Source: a virus (Duplodnaviria; Caudoviricetes). From it: a stretch of DNA of 46,363 nt. Below the pieces are notes generated by a model. It made no database searches. It was not told the origin of the DNA and saw nothing but the letters and a program-made list of their open reading frames with translations. Where the stretch lies: IMG/VR virus record IMGVR_UViG_3300037851_001498, positions 1 through 46,363 of that record; one strand, 5' to 3'. A program made the position numbers and the translations under genes. Shown piece by piece: positions 1 through 19,800 of the stretch (position 1 is its first letter; every line of letters begins with the position of its first letter).

Positions 1-744
1 TCATCCGCCGGACGGCGCTGGTATCCCCTCCAGGAACGCCTCGGCTACAGCCCGGACGCCATTGATGTCGAACTGCTTGATCCAATCCAGCGTGACCCCC
101 TGTGGGGATGATGGCAGATCAATCCTGAGCAGGTCGGCGATGTCTCTGGCGTCGGCCAACAACTCGTAAGAATCACGAACGCCCTGGTCCTCCAACATTT
201 GCGCAAGAATGGCTTTGATGCTTTCCTGGTAGGATTCTCCCTCTGCCTTCTCGATGGCAGCGTAGCTGAGCGCCACGTGATGAGCGAGTTTGGGGTTGTT
301 CGCCCAAACGTATTTTCCGGCATGCCTTGCGGCGATCTTGGCCGATGCCAGCCTGGCCCTGGAATCGGTTTGGTTGACTGCGCAGGCATTAAAGATGGCG
401 GGAAAGAGAAGAAGGAACGAACAGATAACGGCCATGGCCAGGATGGGCCACATATTCACGGCACACCCGCTTGCGCCGGTCAGTCCTGGTGTCCCGCTGG
501 TGACCGCTGGTGCCTTCTTCGAGCGGTGCTTGCTCCACCACGAGGCCCCTGCCGCCCATGCGCCGCTCAGACAGGTAATAACATCACCGAACGAGACGAT
601 GGCCTGCGCGAGGCCCTCACTGATAATCTTGATGTGCTCCTGGGCGATACTGAGTTGCCCAATCTGGGAGATGACGATCAAGATCGATGCGATCATCGCC
701 GAATAGCGGCCGCGGGCCGCCGAAATCAGGTTGCTGTCTTGCAT
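1..744 (-). CDS. Membrane protein, holin-like N-terminus fused to a lipoprotein-like helical domain (247 aa)
   Basis: SD AAAGGAGG then ATG at 744 (shorter than the ORF-track start at 885); two N-terminal hydrophobic segments ending WWSKHRSKK, third hydrophobic segment ending FNAC; at end of late operon. Confidence 0.55.
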   Translation of the reverse strand: MQDSNLISAARGRYSAMIASILIVISQIGQLSIAQEHIKIISEGLAQAIVSFGDVITCLSGAWAAGASWWSKHRSKKAPAVTSGTPGLTGASGCAVNMWPILAMAVICSFLLLFPAIFNACAVNQTDSRARLASAKIAARHAGKYVWANNPKLAHHVALSYAAIEKAEGESYQESIKAILAQMLEDQGVRDSYELLADARDIADLLRIDLPSSPQGVTLDWIKQFDINGVRAVAEAFLEGIPAPSGG

Positions 745-809
745 ATGACCTCCTTTAATTTTAATCCCCGGGCACCAGCGGGATAGCCGGCATGATCTCA
801 TTCCAGTCT

Positions 810-1142
810 TCAAGGCGCTCCTTTGCTGCCATACTTCAACCACACCCCCACTGCGGCCAACCCGATAATGGCGAAGACGATCCACTTCACGGCTGCCATT
901 GCGATCTCGCCGCCGGCCTTTTCACCCCAACGGCGTACCTTGTTTATGAATTCAACCGATTTGCTGAATGATTCGATCCCCTTCTCTACGTTTCCTTCAC
1001 CAATGGCCTGGAAGCGACCAAACAGGTGCACTACGTGATCAGGGTGGCCGCATCGGCATTCCGGCATGCGTTTGGATACAGCATCTGCGATTGCATCGAT
1101 TTCTTCTTGCGTGAGATGGGGCAGTGGCATTTTGTCACCCAT
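810..1142 (-). CDS. Small phage membrane protein (possible holin/lysis accessory)
   Basis: LTQEEIDAIADAV N-terminus, single C-terminal TM (WIVFAIIGLAAVGVWL) with basic tail; overlaps FN3 gene stop; start may be 1130. Confidence 0.6.
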   Translation of the reverse strand: MGDKMPLPHLTQEEIDAIADAVSKRMPECRCGHPDHVVHLFGRFQAIGEGNVEKGIESFSKSVEFINKVRRWGEKAGGEIAMAAVKWIVFAIIGLAAVGVWLKYGSKGAP

Positions 1143-1554
1143 TGGATGGGGTTAACAATATATCCTGAATCTCCATAAACCCTTGGATGATCTTCTCAAG
1201 TGCCTGGCGAAGCTTTTGCGGCACGGATGGTGGCGGCATCTCGGTCACGACCTCATTGGAGTTGCCGCTTTCGACAATGCTGCCGCTGATATTGCCCTTA
1301 ACATAGGCCCGGACCACGAAGGCATTTTCCAGGCCATCGGGCACGGTTACTTCGCAAGTGGTATCACTGCCCTCCCAGATCGGTTTCGTGTAGTCAAACT
1401 CGGCCCCCGTTCGTTGGAATAGTCGATAGCCGGTGGGTGTACCGTTCTCGGGCGGGTCCCATCGCAGGGTGACTTCTTTCGCTTGCACAGTGCAGACACT
1501 GAATAGAAGGAGCAAAGCTAAGGCGGTGAGTACGTTTGTAAATTTTATTTTCAT
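1135..1554 (-). CDS. Secreted fibronectin type III domain protein (139 aa)
   Basis: SD AAAGGA, ATG 1554; Sec signal MKIKFTNVLTALALLLLFSVCTVQA; FN3 motifs VTLRWDPP..TGYRLF..FVVRAY..ESGNSNEV; C-terminal amphipathic helix. Confidence 0.8.
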   Translation of the reverse strand: MKIKFTNVLTALALLLLFSVCTVQAKEVTLRWDPPENGTPTGYRLFQRTGAEFDYTKPIWEGSDTTCEVTVPDGLENAFVVRAYVKGNISGSIVESGNSNEVVTEMPPPSVPQKLRQALEKIIQGFMEIQDILLTPSNG

Positions 1555-1661
1555 TTGAAACGATCCTTTCTTGAGTGAGTATTGCTGCCGCAATTTTATT
1601 GATCCGGCCCAAATCGGACGTGTCGGTTTACCCTATGTAGATCGTTTGCGGCACATGACAC

Positions 1662-2945
1662 CTATTGAAAAGCCCCAGACATGCCTGAAGGAGATCCGCA
1701 GCCACCATGCTGCAATGTGATCGCGGAGCTGTTCTCCATAGCTTCAATGATCGATTGAATCACCACGGCACCGCCCGTCTCTCGTTGGACGACGGTGGGA
1801 TATGCGCCGGACTCCATCGCATAAATGCCCCCCTCAATTCCCAAGGCGTTATATCCATAGGATTCGATCTGGCCGCGCCTAAAATTGGTGTTGTAATCGG
1901 TGACCATGTTGAAGGCAGAATCGAGCAGATAATTGGCCACATCGTTGGTGTTGAGCGCGACGACAATGGCATCGAGCTCGGACACTATCCAGTCGTCATA
2001 AGTTGCATCGTAAACCAGGCGAGGCTCTGAATAGTTGTTGGAGTGGAAGTCAAAGCACACGGTCACATTGGCCTGGACCTCATCAATCTTCGAATGGATC
2101 AGAAACGTCTCTGGCGGTTCGGTAGAGCTGTTGGGGCCGCCTACATCCCAACCGCGATTGCCATCCAAGCCATTATCCATGGACCTGGACCGGCCGGCCC
2201 AGACCCCATCCGGATTATTCATTGGGAAAACATGCAGTACGGACTTTCTTCTCAACTCAACAGCGGCGGCATTGCTCGACAATATCCAGTCAAGAAAACC
2301 GGCCATAGCGTGAGAGGCCTGTGGTTCGCCTGGATGGGACCGGCCGGTGATCACCATCTCGAAACGATTCGTGTAGTATCCTGGCTCCTCGATGAGCATG
2401 TAATAAACGTTTCGGCCGCCCTGGGAATGCGTGACGCCTGCGTGGGACAGGGCTGACACCTGGCAATAGGCGCTGGCGTCCCAGCCGGCCACGTCCGCCA
2501 CCAGGTCCGACCAAGTGTAAGGGTGGTCCATAGCGATATAGACGGTGTCAGCGGCAAGGATCGGCAACGTGAATTGCAGGACCTCGCCGCTGTACGAATC
2601 GATTGAAGCCAACCGATACCATGTCTGCTGATCGTAGGAGTAAACGGGGCGCACCGCGCCATGCGTACCCGGCCAATAAGGCCCTCCGGATCGGGTGTTA
2701 TTGAAGTCTACCCGCACCACTGGAGCAGTACCGATGACATCTGACAGTGCGAAATAAAACCAATCGCCCCAGGAAGTAGCGGCAGGGCTCGGGTCACATT
2801 CGGTGACGACGTTGAAGGTCCCGGCTGGATTCTCGAATGTTGAGGCGGGCACGCCATTGCCGCCTTCGAAACTGCTATCCAGGGTAGCGGCGCCGATGCT
2901 GCCCGGCGAAATGAGCAGCAGTATAACACACAGATATCTAATCAC
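1662..2945 (-). CDS. Secreted M14 zinc carboxypeptidase, CCP/Nna1-like
   Basis: Signal peptide; SSFEGGN, WFYF, HPYTWSDL, RSHPGE (HxxE), PMNNPDGV, DGNRGW, FDFHS and IEGG motifs. Confidence 0.85.
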   Translation of the reverse strand: MIRYLCVILLLISPGSIGAATLDSSFEGGNGVPASTFENPAGTFNVVTECDPSPAATSWGDWFYFALSDVIGTAPVVRVDFNNTRSGGPYWPGTHGAVRPVYSYDQQTWYRLASIDSYSGEVLQFTLPILAADTVYIAMDHPYTWSDLVADVAGWDASAYCQVSALSHAGVTHSQGGRNVYYMLIEEPGYYTNRFEMVITGRSHPGEPQASHAMAGFLDWILSSNAAAVELRRKSVLHVFPMNNPDGVWAGRSRSMDNGLDGNRGWDVGGPNSSTEPPETFLIHSKIDEVQANVTVCFDFHSNNYSEPRLVYDATYDDWIVSELDAIVVALNTNDVANYLLDSAFNMVTDYNTNFRRGQIESYGYNALGIEGGIYAMESGAYPTVVQRETGGAVVIQSIIEAMENSSAITLQHGGCGSPSGMSGAFQ

Positions 2946-3613
2946 GCGGATACCGTCCTTAAAATGGATGCAAGGCCGAATGAGGTGGTAGACTGACTCC
3001 AGGAGCGCGTTGCGGGTGGCGTGGAGCCCACTGACTCGGACGAATACTCATTCGCAGGCGTCACTACGCCACCATCCCACGATAACCCGAAATTATTACC
3101 GGTCCCGCCCCCATCGAAAGCCACCCCGAAGCGCAAGGCGGCGCCCGAGAGAAAATTCAATGATCCTGAAGACACCTCGGCCAGGGCAATTTCGCCGGAC
3201 CATGTCCCGGCCTCCAGAAAATTTAAGATGTCATAGTAGCCGATCAGGTTCGCCCCGCTGAACAGGACCGCCCAGACATACAGACCTTCGACCATCTCTT
3301 CCGGGGCGCCCCTCATGTTCACATGGGTGGCCGTCCCGTTGTAGGTGGCATCCCAGCGACGGCAGTAGGTCCTGTCGGCCGTATTTATATATCCCTGCCA
3401 GGCACCCACGGGGCTTGAAGGCACGCCACTTGAGTTCGGGAACCCCTCCCAATGATCCGTGGCCCCTCCAATTATCTGCCTTTTGGCCGATGACTTCTTA
3501 TGGCCTGCCCAAGCGATTACTTCCTCGACTTTGCATCCGACGCTAAATAGACCCATTGCCCCGGCGGCGGCGAAGACATCGGATAGGAATCTGCGTCTGG
3601 TAATTGGTAGCAT
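2942..3613 (-). CDS. Twin-arginine (Tat) signal protein, possible lipoprotein/adhesin (223 aa)
   Basis: TRRRFL twin-arginine motif, hydrophobic stretch, SVGC lipobox-like; TGATG coupling to upstream gene; beta-rich Gly/Trp/Ser body. Confidence 0.7.
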   Translation of the reverse strand: MLPITRRRFLSDVFAAAGAMGLFSVGCKVEEVIAWAGHKKSSAKRQIIGGATDHWEGFPNSSGVPSSPVGAWQGYINTADRTYCRRWDATYNGTATHVNMRGAPEEMVEGLYVWAVLFSGANLIGYYDILNFLEAGTWSGEIALAEVSSGSLNFLSGAALRFGVAFDGGGTGNNFGLSWDGGVVTPANEYSSESVGSTPPATRSWSQSTTSFGLASILRTVSA

Positions 3614-4770
3614 CAATCCGCTGCGCCTCCATTTGTTACATCTCCCTTGATTTCATCGATGTACCAGCGATTCTCTTCCAGGCAGGTGACGCATACGCGG
3701 TTGTTGGCGCCCATGGCCAAGTCGGCTTCATAGTTGGCGGTCAGGACCGTCCCGTCCTCCAGGACAAAGGCATCAGACGTGGTATCGCCGTACATTGCGA
3801 GCTGTATTTGCTCAGCAGCATCCCGCTCCCTAACCTCAACGAACGCGCCGATGGTGGAGGACGAGCAGTCGGGAAGACCGACTTCGCCAGGTCCGGTCAT
3901 GAGGATGATTGAGCCGAAATCGGCGGTTGTGAGATTGATCCCGCTGGAGGCGGAAACCACCCTGGCGCGACCATTGATTGTGCCGGTGGTGGAAATGTTG
4001 CTTGTAGATAGACCTATGTGGGTCAGCAGAAAATCGGTGGTCCAGTTAGTCCCGTTTGCCAACCGCCATTTTCCATCGTACCAGGCCAGCCGGCCGAGCG
4101 TGGCTGGCAATGTGATGACTACCGTGTTATCCGCTTCCAGGAAATACTCACCGTTGGCGGCACTGGATGCAAAAGATGGTGCGCGGATAGGTTTATTGAA
4201 AGAAAATTCCGCATCGCTGATCTGCAAATTTGGATCTACGCCATCCCCTGTGTTCCAGGTCCATAGCTGCGCACCGTTCGTGGCCGAGCCCCACACGATG
4301 TCATCGAATCCAGTTGTCTGGATCAAAATGGCGTCGATCATATCGTTGTCGATCAGATCTCCGGGCAGATCATCGATATGGGCCAGCCCACCGACCGTGA
4401 TATCCTCAATGGCCGTTTCCAACGTCTGCAATATGTCTTTCAGGACCTGATCGTCAGGAATTGTGGAGCCCAAAAAACTACCGAAAGTCAAAGAGCCGGC
4501 GGGCATACCGATCAGCGCCCAGAGGCTATCTGTTTGCGCAGTCGCGGTATAGCCGCATTCCCACCCACCCGATACGCTCCAAACCTTTGTCTGGCCGGCG
4601 CTGCACGCCAGCTTGTCTTCCTTGGAGTTGACGACTTGTTTGATCTCGTTCGCGTCGGCCGGGGTGAATGGTGAGTCTAACGCCTTATCCGGGTAGGTAA
4701 TACTGAGGGCGTTCGCATTCGGCAAATAGGCCATGAACGCTATCAGCAAGCCGAGGTATATTCTTTTCAT
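3613..4770 (-). CDS. Tail-fibre-like protein with Sec signal peptide (385 aa)
   Basis: SD AAAGGGGG, ATG 4770; MKRIYLGLLIAFMAYLPNANA signal; Thr/Ser/Gly-rich fibre-like segments; C-terminal LT.AD.G..I.MTG...LP domain typical of fibre tips. Confidence 0.65.
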   Translation of the reverse strand: MKRIYLGLLIAFMAYLPNANALSITYPDKALDSPFTPADANEIKQVVNSKEDKLACSAGQTKVWSVSGGWECGYTATAQTDSLWALIGMPAGSLTFGSFLGSTIPDDQVLKDILQTLETAIEDITVGGLAHIDDLPGDLIDNDMIDAILIQTTGFDDIVWGSATNGAQLWTWNTGDGVDPNLQISDAEFSFNKPIRAPSFASSAANGEYFLEADNTVVITLPATLGRLAWYDGKWRLANGTNWTTDFLLTHIGLSTSNISTTGTINGRARVVSASSGINLTTADFGSIILMTGPGEVGLPDCSSSTIGAFVEVRERDAAEQIQLAMYGDTTSDAFVLEDGTVLTANYEADLAMGANNRVCVTCLEENRWYIDEIKGDVTNGGAAD

Positions 4771-4773
4771 TCG

Positions 4774-4851
4774 GCCCCCTTTGCCAATGGGATGATCGTG
4801 CGGCTTCATGACATCATATCCGCACAATGGGCCCGCAAATAGCAAAGGGGC
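4774..4851 (-). promoter_or_regulatory. Structured intergenic leader whose outer stem pairs with the SD of the 4770 gene
   Basis: Minus strand CCCCUUUGCUA (4850-4840) pairs with UGGCAAAGGGG (4786-4776); inner GUGCGG/CCGCAC stem. Confidence 0.5.
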
Positions 4852-4867
4852 TTGAGCCAATTAAAGG

Positions 4868-7800
4868 CTATCTGGCCATTTCCTCCTCGGGCTCCTGAAT
4901 CATTTCGCCGATAAGGTAGGTGCGCTTGTACCAGTCGAGGGCCATTTTGAGCCTTCGCTCCTGATCGGGATTCAACGATTTGCGGAATTCGAACCGATCC
5001 TTTTTAGGGATGGATGCAAGTGGATGTGAACGGCGTATGGACTCGATACGCCCCCTCGGGGTGCCGCCGAGTTCATAGTATTTGGTCAAATAGCGGTGGG
5101 CGGCATCGATGTCGCCGAACTTCATGGCTTGCTTGTACCAGTAAAGGGCATTGCCCTTCTTGTTCGGTCGGCCTCCGAAGCGCTTCTCGTCACCCTTTTT
5201 CTCAAGCCATTCAAACGCCGCGGATCTGGTATCATAATAGGCCATCTCGCCTGGATCTGAATCGTAGGACATTACTCCGGTCAGATCTTCAACCAGTTGC
5301 TGCATGGCCTGGACCGCCGCCGGCGCGCCGGGGGTCTTCCCGCGTGATGGGCGACCCATCGCCGACCGATAGATCGAATCGAGCTTGAAGGTTTTCATCA
5401 AATGCTCTACCCGGTCGCGCACCGGCCTGGGAGTAAAGACGTCGGGGTAAAGCGTGTACCCGCTGGTCACTTCGCCAAACGACTTGATGTCGGGTCGCAA
5501 GGACTGCACGCCTCGATTGACGAGCGCGCTGTAGGCATCCTTGGCCATGGCGATCGTCTTTTCCCCGAGGCTCATTCCGCCCTTAACGACATCCTTTACA
5601 TCCTGGGGCCAATCCTCAAGACCGAAGAAGGATAGGGCATCGGACCAGGCGCCCTGGAACCGTACCGTCATAATCGAACCATCTTCACGCCTTCCAAGAA
5701 TCAGGTGCAATTGGCGTCGGCCGGACTCGCCAAGCTCCTCCTCTTCGTCCGGATGGAGCAGCATGTTCCAGAGCATGATCAAGCCGTAAAGGATGTTGGC
5801 GCGCAGGGCCAGCTTGGCGGCTGACATGACCATCCGCTTGCCGGTGACCGCCGCCACCCGGCCGGCGGCCGAACCGGTCTCCCGGTTCTCGTACTTGGAG
5901 TTGCGCATCATGTAGACGTAGCGCGGGGCATTGATCTCCAGCCAGGAATAGAAGGGGATCAAGCGTTTCCTCAGCCACTCACCGGTCTTACTGATGTTGC
6001 CGTAATCTCCCAGCAGCTCGCGGGCCAGCTTGGCGGCGCGCTCGTTTTTGTCCTCGATGGCATTGACCTCTTCGACTTTGGAAACGCCATAGAGCCGCTT
6101 GTCCGCATTTTCCTTGAAGAAACGGTAGGCCGCAAGCCGCAGCACGTTTTCGCGGAAGCCTGTCATCTGCTGCACAAATTTCCAATAATTCTCAATCCAG
6201 GTCTTCGGCGAAGCCTTGCTCGGTGACTCCTGGAGGATTGCGTGCTTAACGAATCCATCCATCGAGAGCACCTTCAGAACGTCGTTGACCTCCTGCACCG
6301 AAAACCCGGACCCGATAACGCCAAGGCGCCGGGCTTCGGTGAGTTCGCTCTTTAGCGCCGTGGGCATCTCCTTGCCGTGCATGAAGGCCAGCAGGTCCTT
6401 GGCCGCGTTGAAGGCATAGTGCTTGGAGGCGATTTCCGGAGCATAGGCAAGGCAGATATCCAAGTCGCCGCTCATGTTATTCAGGTTGTAGCGCAGCACA
6501 CTGTAAGGGTTCAGCAGGATGTATTGTTTCCAGAACGATTGCAGCCAATCGGCCTTCTTGCCAAGCCATGACGGCTCGGAAGTCTCATAGAACTTATCCA
6601 TGGTTTCGGCCAGCCCCTGGGGGATCACCCAGATCAACTCACGGCCGCGGGCCAGCACCTTGCGGAATTCGGCGTCCTTGGGGTCCAGTTCGCCGGCAAT
6701 CATTCGGTTGATCATGGACTCGGTGACGGTCGATGCCCAGAACCATCCTTTCCCGGGTTCAGGCTTCCAGGTGGTGTAACCCTCGGGGATGAGGTTCTGG
6801 AAGGTGAGGAAGTTATCTCCCAACTCGTTTTTGATAAAGCGGTCACGCTCCTTGATGGCCTTAAAGATGGTGGCCGAATAGTTGGCGCCATTGAGCTTGC
6901 GGTCCAGCAGGTAGGATAGGAAATGGAACCACCGGGGGTCGTCAAACCCAAAGCTCCCGACGTCTCCGATGTTGTCCTCCATCTCCTTCAAGTCGCGGTG
7001 ATTGTTGTAGGCATCGGCCAGGGCCTGCACGAAGTCGGACCAATCGCTGTCATATTCCAGCTTGTCCTCGGCGGCCATGCGCCCGAGACCTTCGTTCGAC
7101 CAGGCGATCATCGCCTTGATGGCCTGCAACTCCTTGCTCTTTTCCTCACCGGTGAGCGGATCTACATCGAGACGGCCCTCGGCGCGGAGCTTTTCCCAAA
7201 GGTTGGTCCAATTCTGATCCTTGGCCTGGTATTTCAGGTCTGAATAGATGTCAGCCTCGGCCTTGATGCGTTTGAGCGTCTCGACCGTTTCAAGCTGGGC
7301 CAATTGCTGGGACACGGCCATGAACTCGGCCTCGACGTACTCGGTGTTGTAATCGAGGGCAGATCCCTTGCGGGCGGCCATCCAGGGGCGCCACTTGGTT
7401 CGGACCTCGCCGGACCCAACCGAAAGCCCATATTTGTCGGTCCAGTATTGAAGCACCTGATGATGAAAATAGTCTTCATCGTCCAGAACCTCACGCTTCA
7501 GCAGCTTGGCCTTGACCAGGCGCTCCTTGATGCCGTTGATCATGTCGTTGCGGCGAGTGAGAGCCCGGGATACCTCCGGGTTATCGACGACCAGCTTCTT
7601 GTAATCATCAAGGGCCTTGAGGACCTCCTCCTTGGTCTTGAATCCAAACGGCAGATGGCCGTCATCAAGCAGCCCCTTATTGATATCCCGGGCCATGTCG
7701 GCCAGGATGATGTTCATGCGATAGACCTCGAATCCGTCTTTCGACAAGTCGCGGGTCAATCCCTGGATCATCTGGATGGCCTTCAGCTTGACGGTTTCGG

Positions 7801-10800: not shown

Positions 10801-13800
10801 TCCGGGCCTCCTTGGCGTTCAGCTTTTCCCACTTCTCGCCCTCAAGGTCTGCGACCTCCTTGATCTGGTTGGTCTTATGAGGCGATGTCAAGGCGCGGTA
10901 CTGATACGGGTTCCCTTTTGAGTCCGTCTTTGATCGAAGCCCAGAAGATATCCAAACCCTTCCGCTGGCCTTGTTCCGGTAGAATCCCCCCGACTCGAGG
11001 AAATGCTCCTGGGCCTTGTCGAAGGTCATAAGATCGGTGGGGTTGGTGACATCGATCTGAACGTATTTCGTTAAAGCGCCGGTGTCCTGGTCGGTATAGA
11101 CGATCTGCTCATCCACCTTCTCGACTTTGTTGCCGGTGATGGTTTCGATGCCGACATCGAGCCGGCCGGTGTCGGCGTAGTCCTGGATCACCCTGTCCAT
11201 GGTTGCCGAAAATTCATCGAAAACCATGTTCTGGGTATCGATCTCCATGGAGAGCAAGCGATTGAGGAACTTGACGATCGGCGGCACTTCGATGCCCCCC
11301 GATATCGGGTTCACCAGGACAAGGCCGGTTTGTGATTCGAAGTCATCGAACGAGACCTTGGCTTTGCCATGCACGACATCCTCGATGTACTTGGTCAGGG
11401 CCTCGGTGGCATAGTCGCTTTCAAGATTATCGCGGGCCTGGAAGATCCCCTGGCTGCCGGTCTTGCGCTCCCCCTTGGTAAGGGCCCCGAGCTGGTCCAG
11501 ACGGCGGGCGATGGAGGATAAGAAGCGGGCCTGGCCCTTCAGATTGGTGGTGACCAGGATGAATTCGGGCGCGCTCACTTCGTTGGACCTGTGAGTCCGG
11601 CCAAGCCCCTGCAAGGCCTTATCGGCCCGCCACCCGGGCTGAATAAGGTAATGCTTTCTGGGACGCTGGTTCTTGAAGCGCTTATCCGCATGGAAACTGC
11701 GCCCGGTGGCCCCTTTGCCGGAAAAGACCAAGACCTGTTTCTTGTCGTCCAGGAATTGATCGACGTCGGCCTGAACTGCTTTGCTCGATCGCTTCTCGAT
11801 CTCCTGCTTTCCGGTCTTGGTGTTGGTGATGATGCGACGGCCGCGTCCGGTGACCTCGGCCACGTTCTCGTGGCCAAGCTCTTGGATGAGAAAATCGAGC
11901 GGCCCGTTGGGCATGACGATCGATGCGACGTTGGACAGCAATTGATCGCGCATGGCCTTGGCCTCCCGGTTGATCACCGGCTTGCCGTCGTCATCGTAAA
12001 CCGGACGCTTGCGAATGGTACCGTTCTCGTCGGTGTATTCCTCGAACTGCTGGATCGGGAAGCTATTCTCCAGGTAGGCCATCAAGTTTTCGCGCGGGGT
12101 CATATCCAGGTCTTCAAGCTCCTGGCCTTCCTCTCGGCGATTCAGGGCGCGCTCTTGTTGTGCCTCGTCCGTGTTCACGAGCTGGAGCACGACGGCATTG
12201 CCGGCCTCGACATCCTTCTTGACGGCATCGATGGCGGTTGGCATCTGCATGGTGGTGATGATTTGATTGAAGAAGCGCTGATGCGCACCCCAGAAGGCTG
12301 AATAGTTGGCCGACTGTTTGTCGGAGCCGGTGATTTTGACAGCCTCGTCGATATTGTGCAGCACCGATTGCCAAGCTCTGGCCAACTCATCGTATTTGGC
12401 CGCCTGGGACTTATCCAAGGTGTGGGTAAGCCGGTCGTACTTGACTTGATCATAGGACAGTGAACGGGCCAGATAGAGGCCGAGGGATTTCATATTGCGG
12501 GCGATCAACTCCATGGTGGCAATGCCGCCCCGGGAAATTTCGTTAACGAAGCTGATGGAGTCGTTGAAGGGTGTGCCTTCACCCCATAGGCCAAGGCGGT
12601 CGGCGTAAACCAGGTTCTCTACTTCGGTTGCACCGGTTGCCGACACATAGACGACCCGGGCTTCAGGCAGGCGCCTTTGCAATGCGATGCCTGCCAAGGC
12701 CATCTGCGACGGCTTCTTGACCCCACGCTCGCCCTTCTTCGGCGCAGCATTTGCCATGTTGTGGGACTCGTCGAAGGCGATCACGCCGTCGAAATCTTTT
12801 CCCAGCCAGTTAACGAGCTGGTTCAGCCGAATGTTCAGGTTGTTGAATGACTCTGGTTGATCCTCTCTGTACTCTGAAAAACCGCCGCGCAGAGTGCTGT
12901 AAGTCGTAAAAAGGATACCCTCGGGCTTTTCGAGCGAGGCGCCCAGCTTGTACGACTTCTGGGAGAACAGATGATTGACACCATCGTCCCACCTACTGTC
13001 GCGCAGGTCGCGCTCGGCGTCGTTGATCAGGTCCCATGACTCGGATATCCAGACGGCCTTCTTGCGGCCTTTCTCCCAATTGTCTCGCAGGATACCGGAT
13101 ATCTCCCGGCCCTTGCCAACGCCGGTGCCATCGCCGATGAAAAATCCCCTCCGTGCTCCCGACGGGAGCCTCTTTGCGTGCGACTGCCCGGCATAGATCA
13201 CGGATTCGAATTGTACTTCGGATAGCCCCCGGGGGTCCCCGGGCTTGGCGCCTTGGATGACCTCTTTGGGCAGGGAGGGGGAATATGTGGCGTCCGGCGC
13301 CTCGGTGTCAGCCATGGCCGCGGACTCGACCAGCGGGGTGGGGTGGGGCCGGTTACCCTCGATCTTGGCCTTGGGCCGGTAGGACTCAAAGATGGAGTCG
13401 GTGAGTTCACGGCGCTCTTTGTGCGCCTCGTTCTCGACTTTTAGATTTGATTCTGGACTTCGAGGTCGTTGACCCTCTCCAGAAGTTCTTCGATCAGCGA
13501 CTCGGGGCTCAGGTTGTCCAGGTTCTCCAGGTCGAGCAGGCTGGCCACCTTCTGCGGATTCCAAGTCTGCATGTCGATCAGACTCAGAACTGACTGCTCC
13601 AGATCTCCACCCAGGCGTCGCTCCAGATCCACCTTGCCGCTCTCCATCGCCAGGCGCAGCAGGTTCAGAACGTGGATTTCGCTTGGGTTCGGTTGGCCGC
13701 CGTACTGACTCAGAAGTGTCTTGGCGTACTGGTTCACTGGCAGGCGGTTGACTTGTTCGAGGCTTTTGTCGCTCATCGCGCACTCCCTTCAGCAAAGTGG

Positions 13801-16800
13801 GCAGATCTTCAAAATGGTCGACAAATCCTTTGACGATATTTTGCCCACTCGGACCCGTTTTGTCAATCACCAGGATCTGGTTGTCAAAGGACGTGCCGTA
13901 CTTGGTGTAATCGGCGCCGGATATGCCGATATTGGCGCGCACGTTGTACTTCTTCTTGATGCGAGTCCACCAATCATGAAAGATTGGCGCGTTGTCGGCC
14001 ATGCCACGGCCGACGATGGCCACCAAGCGCCCGCCATCCTCCAGCCTGGCCAGGGCCTGCTCGACGTGCTGGGCGCCGTACTTGGTCTTGTTGCGTTCCA
14101 CACGGCCGGCGGTGGACGAAAAGGGCGGGTTCATGACGATCACCGTGGGCCTGACATCTTCGGGCAGGATGTTGTCCAACTGCTCGGCGTTTTCAGTGGT
14201 GATGTTCTCAAACCCGAGAGCCTTGAGCAACTCGGCGCGGCGCTTGGAAAGTTCGTTGACATGAACCTTGGCGACGTTGCCCTTGGCGAAAATGGCAAGG
14301 CCCCCTATGCCGGCAGACGGTTCAAGGTAGACATCTTCCGGTTGCAGGTTGGCCACCCAATTGGCCGCGAAGGCCAGCGGGGGAGGGGTGGAGAACTGCT
14401 GGAACTGCTGCTGCTCCTCGGTGCGTTTGGTCTGAGTCGGCAGCTTCGAGATCAACTCTTTCAGTCGATCAATGGTTTCCATGGGAGAAAGTTCACGACC
14501 ACCGAAGTCTCCACGAATTGTTCTAAGCGGAAGGTTCTGTGTTAACCATAGATTGACACCCATCTCCATGGCGTCATAGGCGTCCTTGGGAGTGTACTTG
14601 CCCTGCGCCTGAGTTCCGCCGTACTCCTTGTTCGCCTGCTCGAACAAGTCGCGCCAGTCGAACCGTTTATCGGCGTCGATCTGGTCCTTAACCCAAGCGG
14701 CCAGATTACGGCTGGGGGTGTTGGTGATGGATTCTTCCGCCGGCTGCGCTTCGATGGCATGCTCTTTTTCTACTATCTCAAAATCGGACGCCTTGAAGTG
14801 CAAGTTGCCCGAATTCTCGGTCTTGATATGCTGTGAACCGTCTTCATGCGTCCTGATATGCTGGACCCGCCCGCCGTTTTTCTCGCTAACGCCGCTACCC
14901 GGCTTTGGCCTCACAGTATCGCCGATCTCGAATTTCGTAACGATAGGCGTTGCAGGGGCTTTGTCATCAAACACCGCACGGATTGCGGCTTGGCGGATGG
15001 CCTCATTTTTCTTCCATCCCCAACCATGTCCTGATGGGCCCTGCATGTGGGACGCTTTGCGCCCATCTTCGTTGAGGACTGCAACGCTATATCCTTGTGT
15101 TTCTTTGACGAGCTTGAACGTTTTCCCTTCAGCGTCAACGGCCTTACCGGTGCTTTCCATTGATGCGATGAAAGACTCCCTGCCAACAGCCGAAGCAGAC
15201 TCCTTTTTCACATCTGCCATTGCCGCAACCTTATCGAACCCCTGAGCGATCAGGTTTTTGGCAAAGATGTTGGCGAAGGTGTAATCGTTGGCGCGCATCT
15301 CGCCGCCGGTCATGGCGTTTTGAACGGCCGTTTCGATCAGCCGCAGTCGGCCGTCAGGCATGACGGCAAAAACCATTTCACCGTCACCTATCAAATCGCC
15401 GTTCTGCTCGCGGTAATGGGTCAAGTATATCGCCTGTGGTCCGGTATGATGCTGGTGACGCTCGATTACCAGGTCTTGCCATGGCGGGTTTTTAATGCGC
15501 CGGTGGAAGTCCTCGCCGGCCATAATCTCGTCCTGGATGCCAAGGCCATACAGCAGACGAGCGATATTCTTGGCCGCGTTTCCGGTCTGGGCTTTGGCCT
15601 CCAAGATGGCGGGCCGCTTGGGGGCCTCGCCTTCCTGCTTCTCGGGCTGCTTGTTCTCGACGGCCTCGGCCCATTCCGGATATTCGTCGGACAGCTCGGC
15701 CATCTTCTCGGACCAAGTGTAAAAACCGGCCTGGCCGGGGGTGTACTTATGGCCCTGCTCGAAAGCGTATCGGTATGCTTTCTCGAACTCATCGAAGGTC
15801 AGCTTCTTCTCCCCGGCTGCTTCGCGAATGTCAGGGCGCAGTTGGGCAACCGCCCTGGTATAAGCGGCCTTTGCCGTGTCTCCTTGGCCGTAGACCCGGG
15901 CGACCGACGAGTCCGTGTGATGCCCTATTGTCACCGCATACGACTTGTCCAGGTTCTTATGAACCGTGTACCAAAGATTGTCATTGCCTGGTAAGTTTCG
16001 GCGCTGGCCTGAGACCGATAGATCTTTGTCTTGAGGCTCATTGGTGAGTCGCAATTCTTTGTTCGACTCATTTTCTACCGTTTTTGAGCCGCTGCTTTCG
16101 GCCGCCTTCTTCGACCGCGCCGCGACCGCTTTCTTGATTTGCCATTCGAGCATGGCTGGCTGTTTGGGGACTTCCTGAATCAGATCGGCCACCATGGCCC
16201 GCTGATCATCGGTGAGGCTCTCGATATATGCCTTGTACGACTCGGCGGCCTTCTGCATCTTGGTCTTTTCGGGGGCGGCAAGCTTTCCGTATGGCTGGCG
16301 CTTGCGTCCGGACTTGACCCACTCTTTCAGATCGTCGGTCGATATCTCGGTGATGGCGCCAAGGCCTTTCCATCCCGTTTCGTAGTTGTCCAGGTAGGCC
16401 TTCTTGGCCGCCTGCTCCGAATCGACCCCCATGATGACCTTGTGCTCATCGAACTTGCCGGCTTCAGGATCTATCTGATCGACGATGAACGCCTTGGCGC
16501 TTTCCGGGTGCGGGCCGAGGAATACATCGATTTGATCGCCGTCCTTGCCCTCGCTTCGCTTGAAGTAACCGTAATGGTTCTTCATCTCAACGCGCCAGGC
16601 TTTTCCGGACTTGGAAACGCCCGAGCGGGTGGACCCGCGGGGGTTCTCGATCGTGATGTCCATGCCCTGAACCTGGACATGGCCTTTTTTATAGTTGCCG
16701 GCTTCTTTCTGTGCTTCGGTGGGCTCTGATAGGTTATTTTGCGGCGAAGTGGCCGCTTCGTTGGCGAGAGTGTCTATTTCTTGATGATCGTCGTGTCGCC

Positions 16801-19800
16801 GATCACTATCTTTGCGCCCTTCGGCGCCTTTTCCCAAAACTCCTGGAGGCTCTGCCCCTCGGGGTCTCCGTTCTCCCGAAAGTTCACGTTGAGCCTTGTC
16901 ACCTTTAAGGGCTTGTTCGGCTTCTTGCTGGCTTCGTCCTTTTCCATATGAGAAAGCTCCTACAAAGGTCTTTGTTGTGCCATCCGGCAAGCTGACGGTG
17001 ACCGGGTTGGCAGATAGGTAATCCTTGGCTCTTTTGATCTCGCCGTCAACATCAATGTTTTCGTCGGCCTCGGCCCAGAACTCATCCCCGCTCGGATGGT
17101 ATGCCTTCAGGGATGTGTTTTTCAGGCCATCGGCAATGCGGCGAATGAGTTCGTCGCCGGCCTTGTGCCCAAAAGTATCGTTGACCCACTTCAAGCCATC
17201 GGCATCGATCGACACCTGGGCCGGCTTGCGTGGGGATTCATTATAAGCGCGTCGGTTTCCAAGTCCCGTAAGCGAGTCTTCATAGAGCGCCTTGAACCGC
17301 TCGTCGTTGGACATGGCGTCATATTTTGCGCGAAGCTCGGTATCGGTCCGGCGGTCAGCCTCGCCACGGTCCACCGTGCGCCGGCCTGATATTTGTGCCT
17401 GCTCGGGAAGATCTTGGGTACTGACCTCGATCATTTTCGATGGATCAATCGAAAACTGGCTATCGGTTCCGCGAAGGACGACCTCATCGCCAAACACGTC
17501 ATTGGACACAACGGTGAAGCGATCATAGCGACCATCGATGACAAGGCCAACCTTGCTGCCTTCTGGTAGATCGCGCGCGGTAATGCGTCTATAGGCCCCT
17601 TCCTTGTCGTAATCCGGCGGCATTTCGTCGGGCGCTGTCGCAGATTCCTGAAAGGCAGCGGCCTGGGCCTTCTGGTTCTTGGTGATCGGGGTGTCGGTGT
17701 TCAGCTTACCCCTCTTCAATGTGTCCGGGGTATTCATCAGGATATCTTCGAGGTCATCGGATGGCAGCATCCATCCTTCACGGACGGCAAGTTCCTTGGC
17801 CTTTTCCATCTCGACGCCGGTCTTGCTGAAGATCTTGGCTTTGGATGCGGCATCGCTCCTGAAAGACAGGTCGCTCTTTTGATTGGTGGGGTTAATCCCA
17901 CCAATGGCGCGTAGGAACCCTCCGAGCGTTGTGGGCCCGCCCTTGTCGGCCGGCTTCCGGGCTTCTTTCAGCCATTCGGCGCGCTGGACGCGGGCGTCCT
18001 GCTCACCCTGGACGATCTTTTCAAGGTCGGGCCGGCGCTGCTGACGGAAAACAAGGAAGGCTTGCTGCAATCGTTCCGGGGCTGCGTCACTGATCGAGCC
18101 GCCAAGTTCCCTTTCAACCGTTTCAAGTTTGGCCTGGGCAACGGCCTGTTCGGCACGCTCGGGGCTCGGTGCTTTATCCAGGTTGGTGATGGTGTTGACA
18201 AGGTCCGGATTCTCGGCGGCCACCTGGCGGGCCTGCGGCAGCCGTTCGCGTTGGATGCGGTTGTTGAGCAACTCCTCCTCGACGAGCATATCCTGGGCCG
18301 ACTGCTGGGCAGACTTGCCGGTTTCGGCCGTCAATCCCGCGATGGCCTCGCGGCTTGCCTGTTCGCGGGCGCCCTTTTCCTGGACGCCGAGGGCCTCGTC
18401 GATGGCCGCGGCTGACTCGTCGGCAGGGGTGATTCCCCGGGAGGTCATCTCGGCCTTCAGTTCGGCCAGGTTCGCAGCCTGCTTCTCCGAAAGGCCCCTT
18501 TTATGCTGTGCGGCGATCAGGTTGGATGTGCGCTTGACCAGTTCATCCCGGGAAAGGTCGGCATACTTTCTCTTGGTCTGCTGGGTGGGGGCAAGTGGGG
18601 GCGCCGTTTTCTGGGCATGCACGGCTGCTGATACATCAGGTGATATAGCGACTGCCTGAGACGTCAGTGCCTCTTCGTCATAAGCGGCCGCGGCCTCCTC
18701 GGCGTCGAGGGTGTCGGCCTGGTCGCGGACCGTTCCCGGGGGAGCCGTTCTGATCTCTGAAGGCTGGAGCGGCGAGCGCTTTTGACGTTGCTCCTCGGCC
18801 TGTTTCTCGAAGGTCCCCGGCGGTACCGTTTTTATATCCGGTGGCTGAAGCGGCTCAACCCCCAGAAGGCTTTCGGGTGTCTCGGCTTCTTCGCCTTGAT
18901 CGAGCAGCACGCCTTTGGCGTCCCTTGCCGTGCTGACGGCAGTGCCTGGGGCGGCCATGAGGGAAAAGGCGAGGGCGGATTGCTTGGCGGTATCGAGCAG
19001 CCTCTTGGTTATGTCCTGGCGTGTGGCGGCCGGGATATCGCTTTCATTATCGATTTCCTTGGCGACCTCGGTGGCCAGGATATTGGTGCTTTCCTGCAAA
19101 ATCTCCTGGCCGGTCTCGGCAGCAACCACCCCGCCGTATTTGCCGGCAGCGCGCAGGGCCACACCGTGGAGAGTCTTGTTCTTGATCGTGTTAACGACTG
19201 CCCGGTTGACGGCCTTGGCCACAAGTTTGTCGGCTCCCGGGATGGTCTTCAGTAGGAGGCCGATCTGGGACATCTCGATGGCGCCGTTGACCACCCCCAC
19301 GGCCGCTGCCGCGCTCTTGGCAATCGTCGGGTCCAGCCGGTTGCCATCGGCGTCCTTCAGGTCCAGCAGCTCGTCATAGGCAAGTCCGGCCTCGATCTTG
19401 CCGATGCTCTCGATAGATCCGGACACCTGGCCGATGGTGTAGCCGGTGGCGAAGGTGACAGGGACCGTGACGGCCTCTTCGGGGAGGGCCACCTGCGGGC
19501 CTGTCTGACCGGCGACGGCTGCCATGCCGGCGAATCCGGCGCCAAGCATCGCCCCCCGGGTGGCGCCTTGTTTGATGCCCTCGGCCATAGTGGGGAGCAT
19601 TTCGGCTGATGCAGAGAAAGCCTGCTCGATCAAACTGCGGTCGCCCTTGAACTCGGGGGGCATGGACTTTTTGAGCTTTTCAATCTCGTCGCGGATCTCC
19701 GGGGTGTCCTCCCCCATGAGTTGGCGGGATCTCAGCAGGCCGATTTTGGTCTGGGCATCGCCCTTGCGCCATGCGTCGGCTACGCGCTTGGCTTTGGGGA

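Follow-up and report, generated by a model that had tools for sequence, protein, structure and literature searches.

A nested reading frame in the methylase-helicase linker of giant phage and plasmid genes, and its possible connection with the helicase

The giant gene and the reading frame nested in it

The stretch of DNA analysed here (the window) is the whole of virus record IMGVR_UViG_3300037851_001498 (46,363 nucleotides), which is of podovirus type, is classed as a provirus and is 88% complete. It holds a giant gene (Table 1) in which Pfam matched GGDEF, InPase, DUF6908, AAA_34 and Helicase_C_4, and upstream of which lie genes for a P22-like portal, capsid and SU10 adaptor. Excerpts of PMC5512222 describe a methylase-helicase dyad of polyvalent proteins, with phage P1 DarB as archetype and with mention of strawberry-notch-like versions, and by its sequence the giant gene fits this dyad: like P1 DarB it is multi-domain, lies beside virion genes and fuses an N6-adenine methyltransferase (MTase; TP and NPP(Y/F) motifs, here NPPF) to an SF2 ATPase, together with unrelated further domains. 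The link to virion or conjugation genes is given by the portal, capsid and SU10 adaptor genes here and by traI and traF beside a plasmid homolog. Among the tail-region genes we also found a zinc carboxypeptidase (Peptidase_M14 with an N-terminal domain; 1662-2945, minus strand), an unusual podovirus cargo.

Table 1. Features of the giant gene and of the frames nested in it (positions in the window)
Feature	Position	Strand	Remarks
Giant polyvalent (DarB-like) protein gene, 5097 aa	4868..20161	-	GGDEF, InPase, DUF6908, adenine MTase, strawberry-notch-like SF2 ATPase
GGDEF domain, Pfam-matched stretch	17078..17278	-	Pfam
Second nested +1 ORF, 57 aa	16774..16947	-	GGAG site; codon advantage +0.46; directly after GGDEF domain
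Adenine MTase domain, ends approximate	13853..14404	-	TPP; LEPSAG at residue 1946; NPPF at 2011
Sigma-70-like promoter TTGACA-17-CAAAAT, predicted	13838..13866	-	-35 box spelled by host I-D-K codons
Shine-Dalgarno-like site AAGGGAG	13783..13789	-	6 nt before ATG; host residues K-G-V of the (E/K)G(I/V)R(N/D)(D/E)R motif
111-aa nested gene in the +1 frame; acidic product, predicted to be globular with seven helices	13441..13776	-	ATG; giant residues 2129-2241
Strawberry-notch-like SF2 helicase core	11123..13402	-	Pfam AAA_34 + Helicase_C_4

An earlier note, made from the sequence alone, had proposed that a 111-aa overprinted gene exactly fills the linker between MTase and helicase. The features that it read from the window were recovered: the AAGGGAG site, 6 nt ahead of an ATG; a Leu/Glu-rich product (22 Leu and 11 Glu among 111 residues; net charge -9, pI 4.4, 12.6 kDa); and a giant frame that reads as off-frame-like text over the overlap (P17 R16 S14 E13 G13) and has no stop. 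The codons of the nested frame are indeed genome-typical, scoring +0.81 bits/codon over the host frame (z 8.3) in a codon-usage model built from 15 of the window's other genes, against a best value of -0.07 among 9486 other 111-codon alternative-frame windows of the giant gene, and codon usage favouring the +1 frame is confined to the nested stretch within the giant gene. The wording 'exactly filling' holds only nearly, as the nested stop lies 38 nt short of the helicase start anchor. The length of the ORF is by itself unremarkable, since two longer +1 stop-free stretches (132 and 120 codons) occur elsewhere in the giant gene and the +1 frame stayed open in 11819/20000 synonymous recodings of the host linker. 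When the nested protein was recoded synonymously the host frame stayed open in only 48/20000 cases, and therefore the host frame is also maintained. At locus L001, open frames of more than 1100 codons each lie antisense to the giant gene (1-3399 and 4048-7506, minus strand) with a gap near the nested gene; they are probably a shadow of codon bias.

Conservation, selection and predicted product

We collected 215 related loci (216 sequences with the window) from phages, prophages and some conjugative plasmids, dropped 39 sequences that lacked a domain or had a duplicate linker, and analysed the remaining 177 loci, calling a nested gene where a +1 ORF of 90 aa or more ended before the helicase. 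Preservation of the frame in relatives, on which the earlier note had made its proposal depend, was found in 170/177 loci: 169 by this rule plus L144, which was missed solely because its anchor had been misplaced, and which matches the nested profile (E 1.7e-22). The other seven comprise L100 and L132, which are frameshifted and retain remnants of the nested gene, and L044, L120, L124, L130 and L133, which have short linkers and no nested-profile match. Stretches of at least 90 stop-free codons were present in the linker in the +1 frame of 171/175 loci and in the +2 frame of 3/175, and in the domain controls in the +1 frame of 9/175 (MTase) and of 36/172 and 15/167 (helicase), while the host frame is open across the overlap in 168/169. 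The loci are not all independent, the host proteins clustering into 104 groups at 80% and 25 at 60% identity. BLAST links 151 of 174 loosely called nested ORFs to the window protein; the unlinked ORFs form smaller groups, mostly in records that bear a Firmicutes label or none. A further 16 homologs (107-132 aa), without DNA context, came from protein searches, and a 662-aa match was set aside as a spurious hit to a repeat; as sole query the nested protein retrieved no loci from viral contigs, and neither did a single 700-aa query from genome contigs. The nested gene is kept alike in podovirus-type (virion) genes and in MPF_T conjugative plasmids. Among the carriers is plasmid NC_016108 of Methylotuvimicrobium alcaliphilum 20Z. 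Several relatives (P0007, P0020, P0029, P0031, P0033, P0079, L037, L048 and L155) have linkers of 250-560 aa with a helical insert between the nested region and the helicase, and in the long-linker loci with DNA the nested stop is at its usual place.

The codons of the host motif (E/K)G(I/V)R(N/D)(D/E)R contain both the ribosome site and the ATG of the nested gene. The motif was matched in 152/169 loci, and in all of these (152/152) its N/D codon is AAT or GAT, against 959/2019 comparable helicase codons; the nested start is ATG in 166/174 loci, at the same offset in 131/174. For 35 disjoint pairs selected by their nested identity, values of pN/pS were 0.32 for the nested frame, 1.71 for the host linker and 0.15 for the helicase. 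Because choice by nested identity favours the nested frame, pairs were chosen again by host identity (34 pairs, DNA-aligned): changes per host codon position 1/2/3 were 0.26/0.16/0.12 in the linker against 0.08/0.04/0.32 in both flanking domains, and this inversion was seen in 33/34 pairs. The substitution patterns thus indicate that purifying selection acts on the nested frame. A conserved in-frame restart that would yield a separate helicase was also considered and rejected, with a start near the nested stop in 39/168 loci and a ribosome-site match in 11/168.

The AlphaFold2 model of the nested product, built with 119 sequences, is compact and consists of seven helices (pLDDT 88.4, pTM 0.79), in agreement with the helical product that had been predicted. 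Mean column identity is 17%, the best-conserved columns being M1, N10, L22 and P74. Neither Pfam nor PHROG gave a match for the nested protein, and no Pfam family matched more than one of the 119 alignment members. The best PDB sequence match, TRF2 (E 0.01), was dismissed as a chance helical match, the best ESM Atlas score (0.79) was to an unnamed protein, and a fold search of the model in PDB and BFVD returned nothing at E<=0.001 (best VIA, Z 4.9). These blank family and fold searches do not show that the fold is new.

The nested proteins are net negative in 161/174 cases, and the idea had been raised that the product is a DNA mimic. DNA mimics of the Ocr/ArdA type have a conserved, dense acidic surface. 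The product of the window has a net charge of -9, and the nested family has few conserved acidic columns; its first third is neutral on average with only the last two thirds acidic, the best-conserved columns after M1 are N, L and P, and no Ocr/ArdA-type family was among the matches listed in the Pfam, PDB-sequence and fold searches. The DNA-mimic idea thus found no positive support.

Taken at the level of sequence, the stretch is almost certainly a real dual-coding nested gene, and the dual coding that had been proposed is strongly supported by conservation, by fixation of the start site and by frame-specific selection. It is highly improbable that it yields no protein and is only what remains of an ancient fusion, or reflects a frameshift path or faulty assembly: ORF length is uninformative on this point and the gene is known here from sequence only, but the ribosome site and ATG are fixed, a stop precedes the helicase, close pairs show purifying selection, the host frame is open in nearly all loci and the predicted fold is confident.

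The word 'overprinted' also implied that the nested frame arose over an older giant frame, and this direction may be reversed, given the native codons of the nested frame, the purifying selection and the predicted fold. Judged from its codons, the nested frame seems to be ancestral and the host linker secondary, although with age de novo genes, too, come to share the native usage (PMC8227390, excerpts). Seven plasmid homologs, hand-picked among 60 listed of 617 records, have linkers of 85-115 aa without a nested-profile match (7/7), and a tree places them, together with L120 and L124, inside groups that bear the nested gene. This tentatively suggests that their lack of it reflects loss, within a FastTree phylogeny of 73 sequences that is midpoint-rooted, has long branches and carries no topology test.

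Sister helicase family, other nested frames and an internal promoter

Serratia phage Parlo, ZX1 and Vibrio 1.232.O, cultured phages found through their MTase, have the reverse domain order (helicase first, MTase after), and each carries a +1 ORF of 129-131 aa just upstream of the helicase that is unannotated in the three GenBank records examined. They led into a second, more conserved nested family of about 120-130 aa (L224:1108, L225:1108, L226:1153, L227-L386). From 160 further loci, 21 were dropped (no anchor, short upstream DNA or duplicates), and 126 of the remaining 139 have a +1 ORF ending just before the helicase, 124 of them in one BLAST cluster; the controls gave 2 for the +2 frame and 32 and 8 inside the helicase. 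The MTase motif lies downstream in 95/101 loci and upstream in none, and was not found in 6. As in the family of the window, pN/pS is low for the nested gene (0.35) and high for the host frame (1.51; 32 pairs), and the product is predicted to be all-helical (Parlo-type pLDDT 91.9), with nothing at E<=0.001 in a fold search of PDB and BFVD (best Z 4.3). The two helicase families are homologous (hhalign 97.6%), while homology between the two nested families was not detected (hhalign 0.1%).

Because the nested ORF precedes the helicase in both domain orders, the layout points to an association with the helicase rather than the methylase. The earlier note had suggested a regulator of either enzyme; the gene order of the sister family favours the helicase half of that suggestion and speaks against the methylase half. 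That the nested protein regulates the methylase, or is its specificity or accessory subunit, is accordingly quite improbable: the nested start and the last MTase helix do overlap in the window's family, but where the domains are reversed the nested gene sits beside the helicase, with the MTase motif about 870 codons further downstream.

A second nested ORF was detected in the window itself, directly after the GGDEF domain (Table 1). Both relatives that were found carry a +1 ORF at this place, the one of L388 (1571-1732) being 41% identical over 54 residues and the one of L389 having been compared by eye only. Further nested frames were recorded as separate observations. Bacteroides phage BS-TP4 (L223:2093-2452; host identity 27%) has a 119-aa acidic +1 ORF in its MTase-helicase linker for which neither a ribosome-site match nor a nested-profile match was found and a self-trained test gave no positive codon signal, making it a weaker case of a nested gene. 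At L001, a different linker of the giant gene holds a 77-aa +1 ORF with a GGAGG site and a codon advantage of +0.58 (L001:2420-2653, plus strand), and another linker of a Vibrio phage giant gene holds a 35-aa +1 ORF with a GAGG site (L226:652-759, plus strand).

Upstream of the nested gene of the window lies a predicted sigma-70-like promoter. As the host I-D-K codons in part dictate its -35 box, it was tested against synonymous recoding of each locus. Promoter-like sites at the motif occurred in 13/101 dereplicated loci against 2.9 expected (nominal P 1e-8, for a threshold set after seeing the data and for related loci) and within 120 nt upstream in 18 against 4.7 expected, with control counts of 6 against 8.3 further upstream and 20 against 23.2 in the helicase. 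A universal internal promoter was rejected, 88/101 relatives having no site at the motif, and because of this, the post-hoc threshold and the relatedness of the loci, the putative promoter is at best a lineage-level feature. Weaker sigma-70-like matches (9 of 12 positions) occur in the giant gene at 13282-13311 and 14517-14545 (minus strand), and no terminator was found in 13000-14600.

Such a promoter would suit early expression, and the nested protein might then be an independent early anti-defence effector (a DNA mimic or an inhibitor of a host enzyme) housed in a tolerant linker. The prevailing negative charge, the rapid divergence of the family and the presence of two unrelated nested families at the same spot are in line with this, but the net charge is only about -8, with an N-terminal third that is neutral on average and non-acidic best-conserved columns, all 170 DNA-checked cases are nested with none free-standing, and the position before the helicase is strict in two domain orders. 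We consider this explanation unlikely.

A possible helicase partner, rivals and precedents

The most plausible, though tentative, reading is that the nested product is a cognate partner (inhibitor or chaperone) of the strawberry-notch-like SF2 helicase that would keep the enzyme inactive in the producer cell. Our grounds for the partner and for the direction of the effect are the position of the gene, the recurrence of the layout next to enzyme domains and the TraH precedent (below). The small helical protein would bind the helicase encoded just downstream and hold the enzyme inactive in the producing cell. By analogy to P1 DarB and other polyvalent proteins (PMC5512222, excerpts), the giant protein would be packaged or transferred with the DNA and protect it from restriction; the small protein would stay behind in the producer, so that the methylase-helicase could then act on the newly delivered DNA. 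Where an internal sigma-70-like promoter exists, the partner might also be supplied in the lysogen or plasmid carrier or, alternatively, soon after entry, so that the enzyme is switched off. Through nesting, the partner would stay linked to its enzyme as polyvalent proteins shuffle their domains.

The helicase-partner reading is favoured by the location of the nested ORF directly before the helicase in two architectures and by the same layout beside a second enzyme domain, GGDEF. Against it, the two nested families have no detectable homology and may share only a permissive linker. In 5/177 loci and in 7/7 of the hand-picked plasmids the methylase-helicase is intact although its linker is short and lacks the nested gene, and since such plasmid-type relatives keep the methylase-helicase alone, the enzyme can exist without the nested gene. 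Mean nested column identity is moreover 17%, as against 44-66% identity of the helicases to that of the window, a variability that one would not expect of a protein binding tightly to a conserved surface. The proposed link to the helicase rests on position.

The nested protein could instead be a chaperone for folding, packaging or delivery of the giant protein that leaves enzyme activity unaffected, which would go well with co-translation from the same late message, as follows from the layout, with a small, all-helical and acidic predicted fold, and with TraH, which acts as an assembly stabiliser (PMC7314908, excerpts). It is nonetheless kept in podovirus-type genes and in MPF_T plasmids, whose delivery machines are unrelated, and a late chaperone would not need an internal host-type promoter; we regard this alternative as improbable.

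Some of the closest parallels are other nested genes. According to excerpts of PMC7314908, TraH of the IncP plasmid RP4 is a small acidic protein whose gene is nested in traI and which acts on the host gene product. As here, the small gene occupies another reading frame inside a gene whose product, a large DNA-processing enzyme, travels with the DNA; unlike here, the host gene encodes a relaxase rather than a methylase-helicase, and TraH stabilises a complex whereas inhibition is proposed for the nested product. The traH in excerpts of PMC4700958 is a different gene and was set aside. The surface gene of hepatitis B virus, nested in the polymerase spacer, and the movement protein of apple stem grooving virus, encoded in a linker (PMC8227390, excerpts), share the asymmetric evolution of a constrained frame over a variable linker frame; these are small eukaryotic viruses, whereas the present layout is found in phages and plasmids of 40-100 kb across several bacterial phyla.

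The main text of PMC5512222 does not contain the words 'overlapping' and 'linker', excerpts of the Parlo announcement (PMC6606913) mention embedded spanins as the only nested genes, and we found no literature on nested genes of the window type or Parlo type in open-licence full text. Nested genes are already known as a kind. Among phages, Rz1 of lambda is embedded in Rz on the same strand and its product works with the host gene product. Rz and Rz1 are membrane and lipoprotein lysis spanins, whereas the nested product described here is predicted to be soluble and lies in a gene for a DNA enzyme. We know of few well-studied prokaryotic examples of long same-strand overlaps that are selected in both frames.

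It is conceivable, though doubtful, that polyvalent proteins more generally hide small out-of-frame genes in the linkers beside their enzyme domains, as built-in antidotes that travel with a shuffled domain. Somewhat speculatively, such a layer of antidotes might cover the helicase, with two unrelated nested families, and the GGDEF domain, with a third, each silencing a weapon in the producer cell. Many 'low-complexity linkers' would then be shadows cast by genes that lack annotation, and some of these genes would have promoters of their own for the host polymerase. If the nested proteins do control an injected methylase-helicase, this would explain how the enzyme can be produced safely and give a handle on the function of DarB-like proteins. 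The nested start can be removed without altering the host protein, which makes the role directly testable. Hundreds of phage and plasmid genes conceal one or other of two protein families for which Pfam, PHROG and fold searches gave no match; the carriers include cultured phages and a named plasmid, where the annotation shows the giant gene only.
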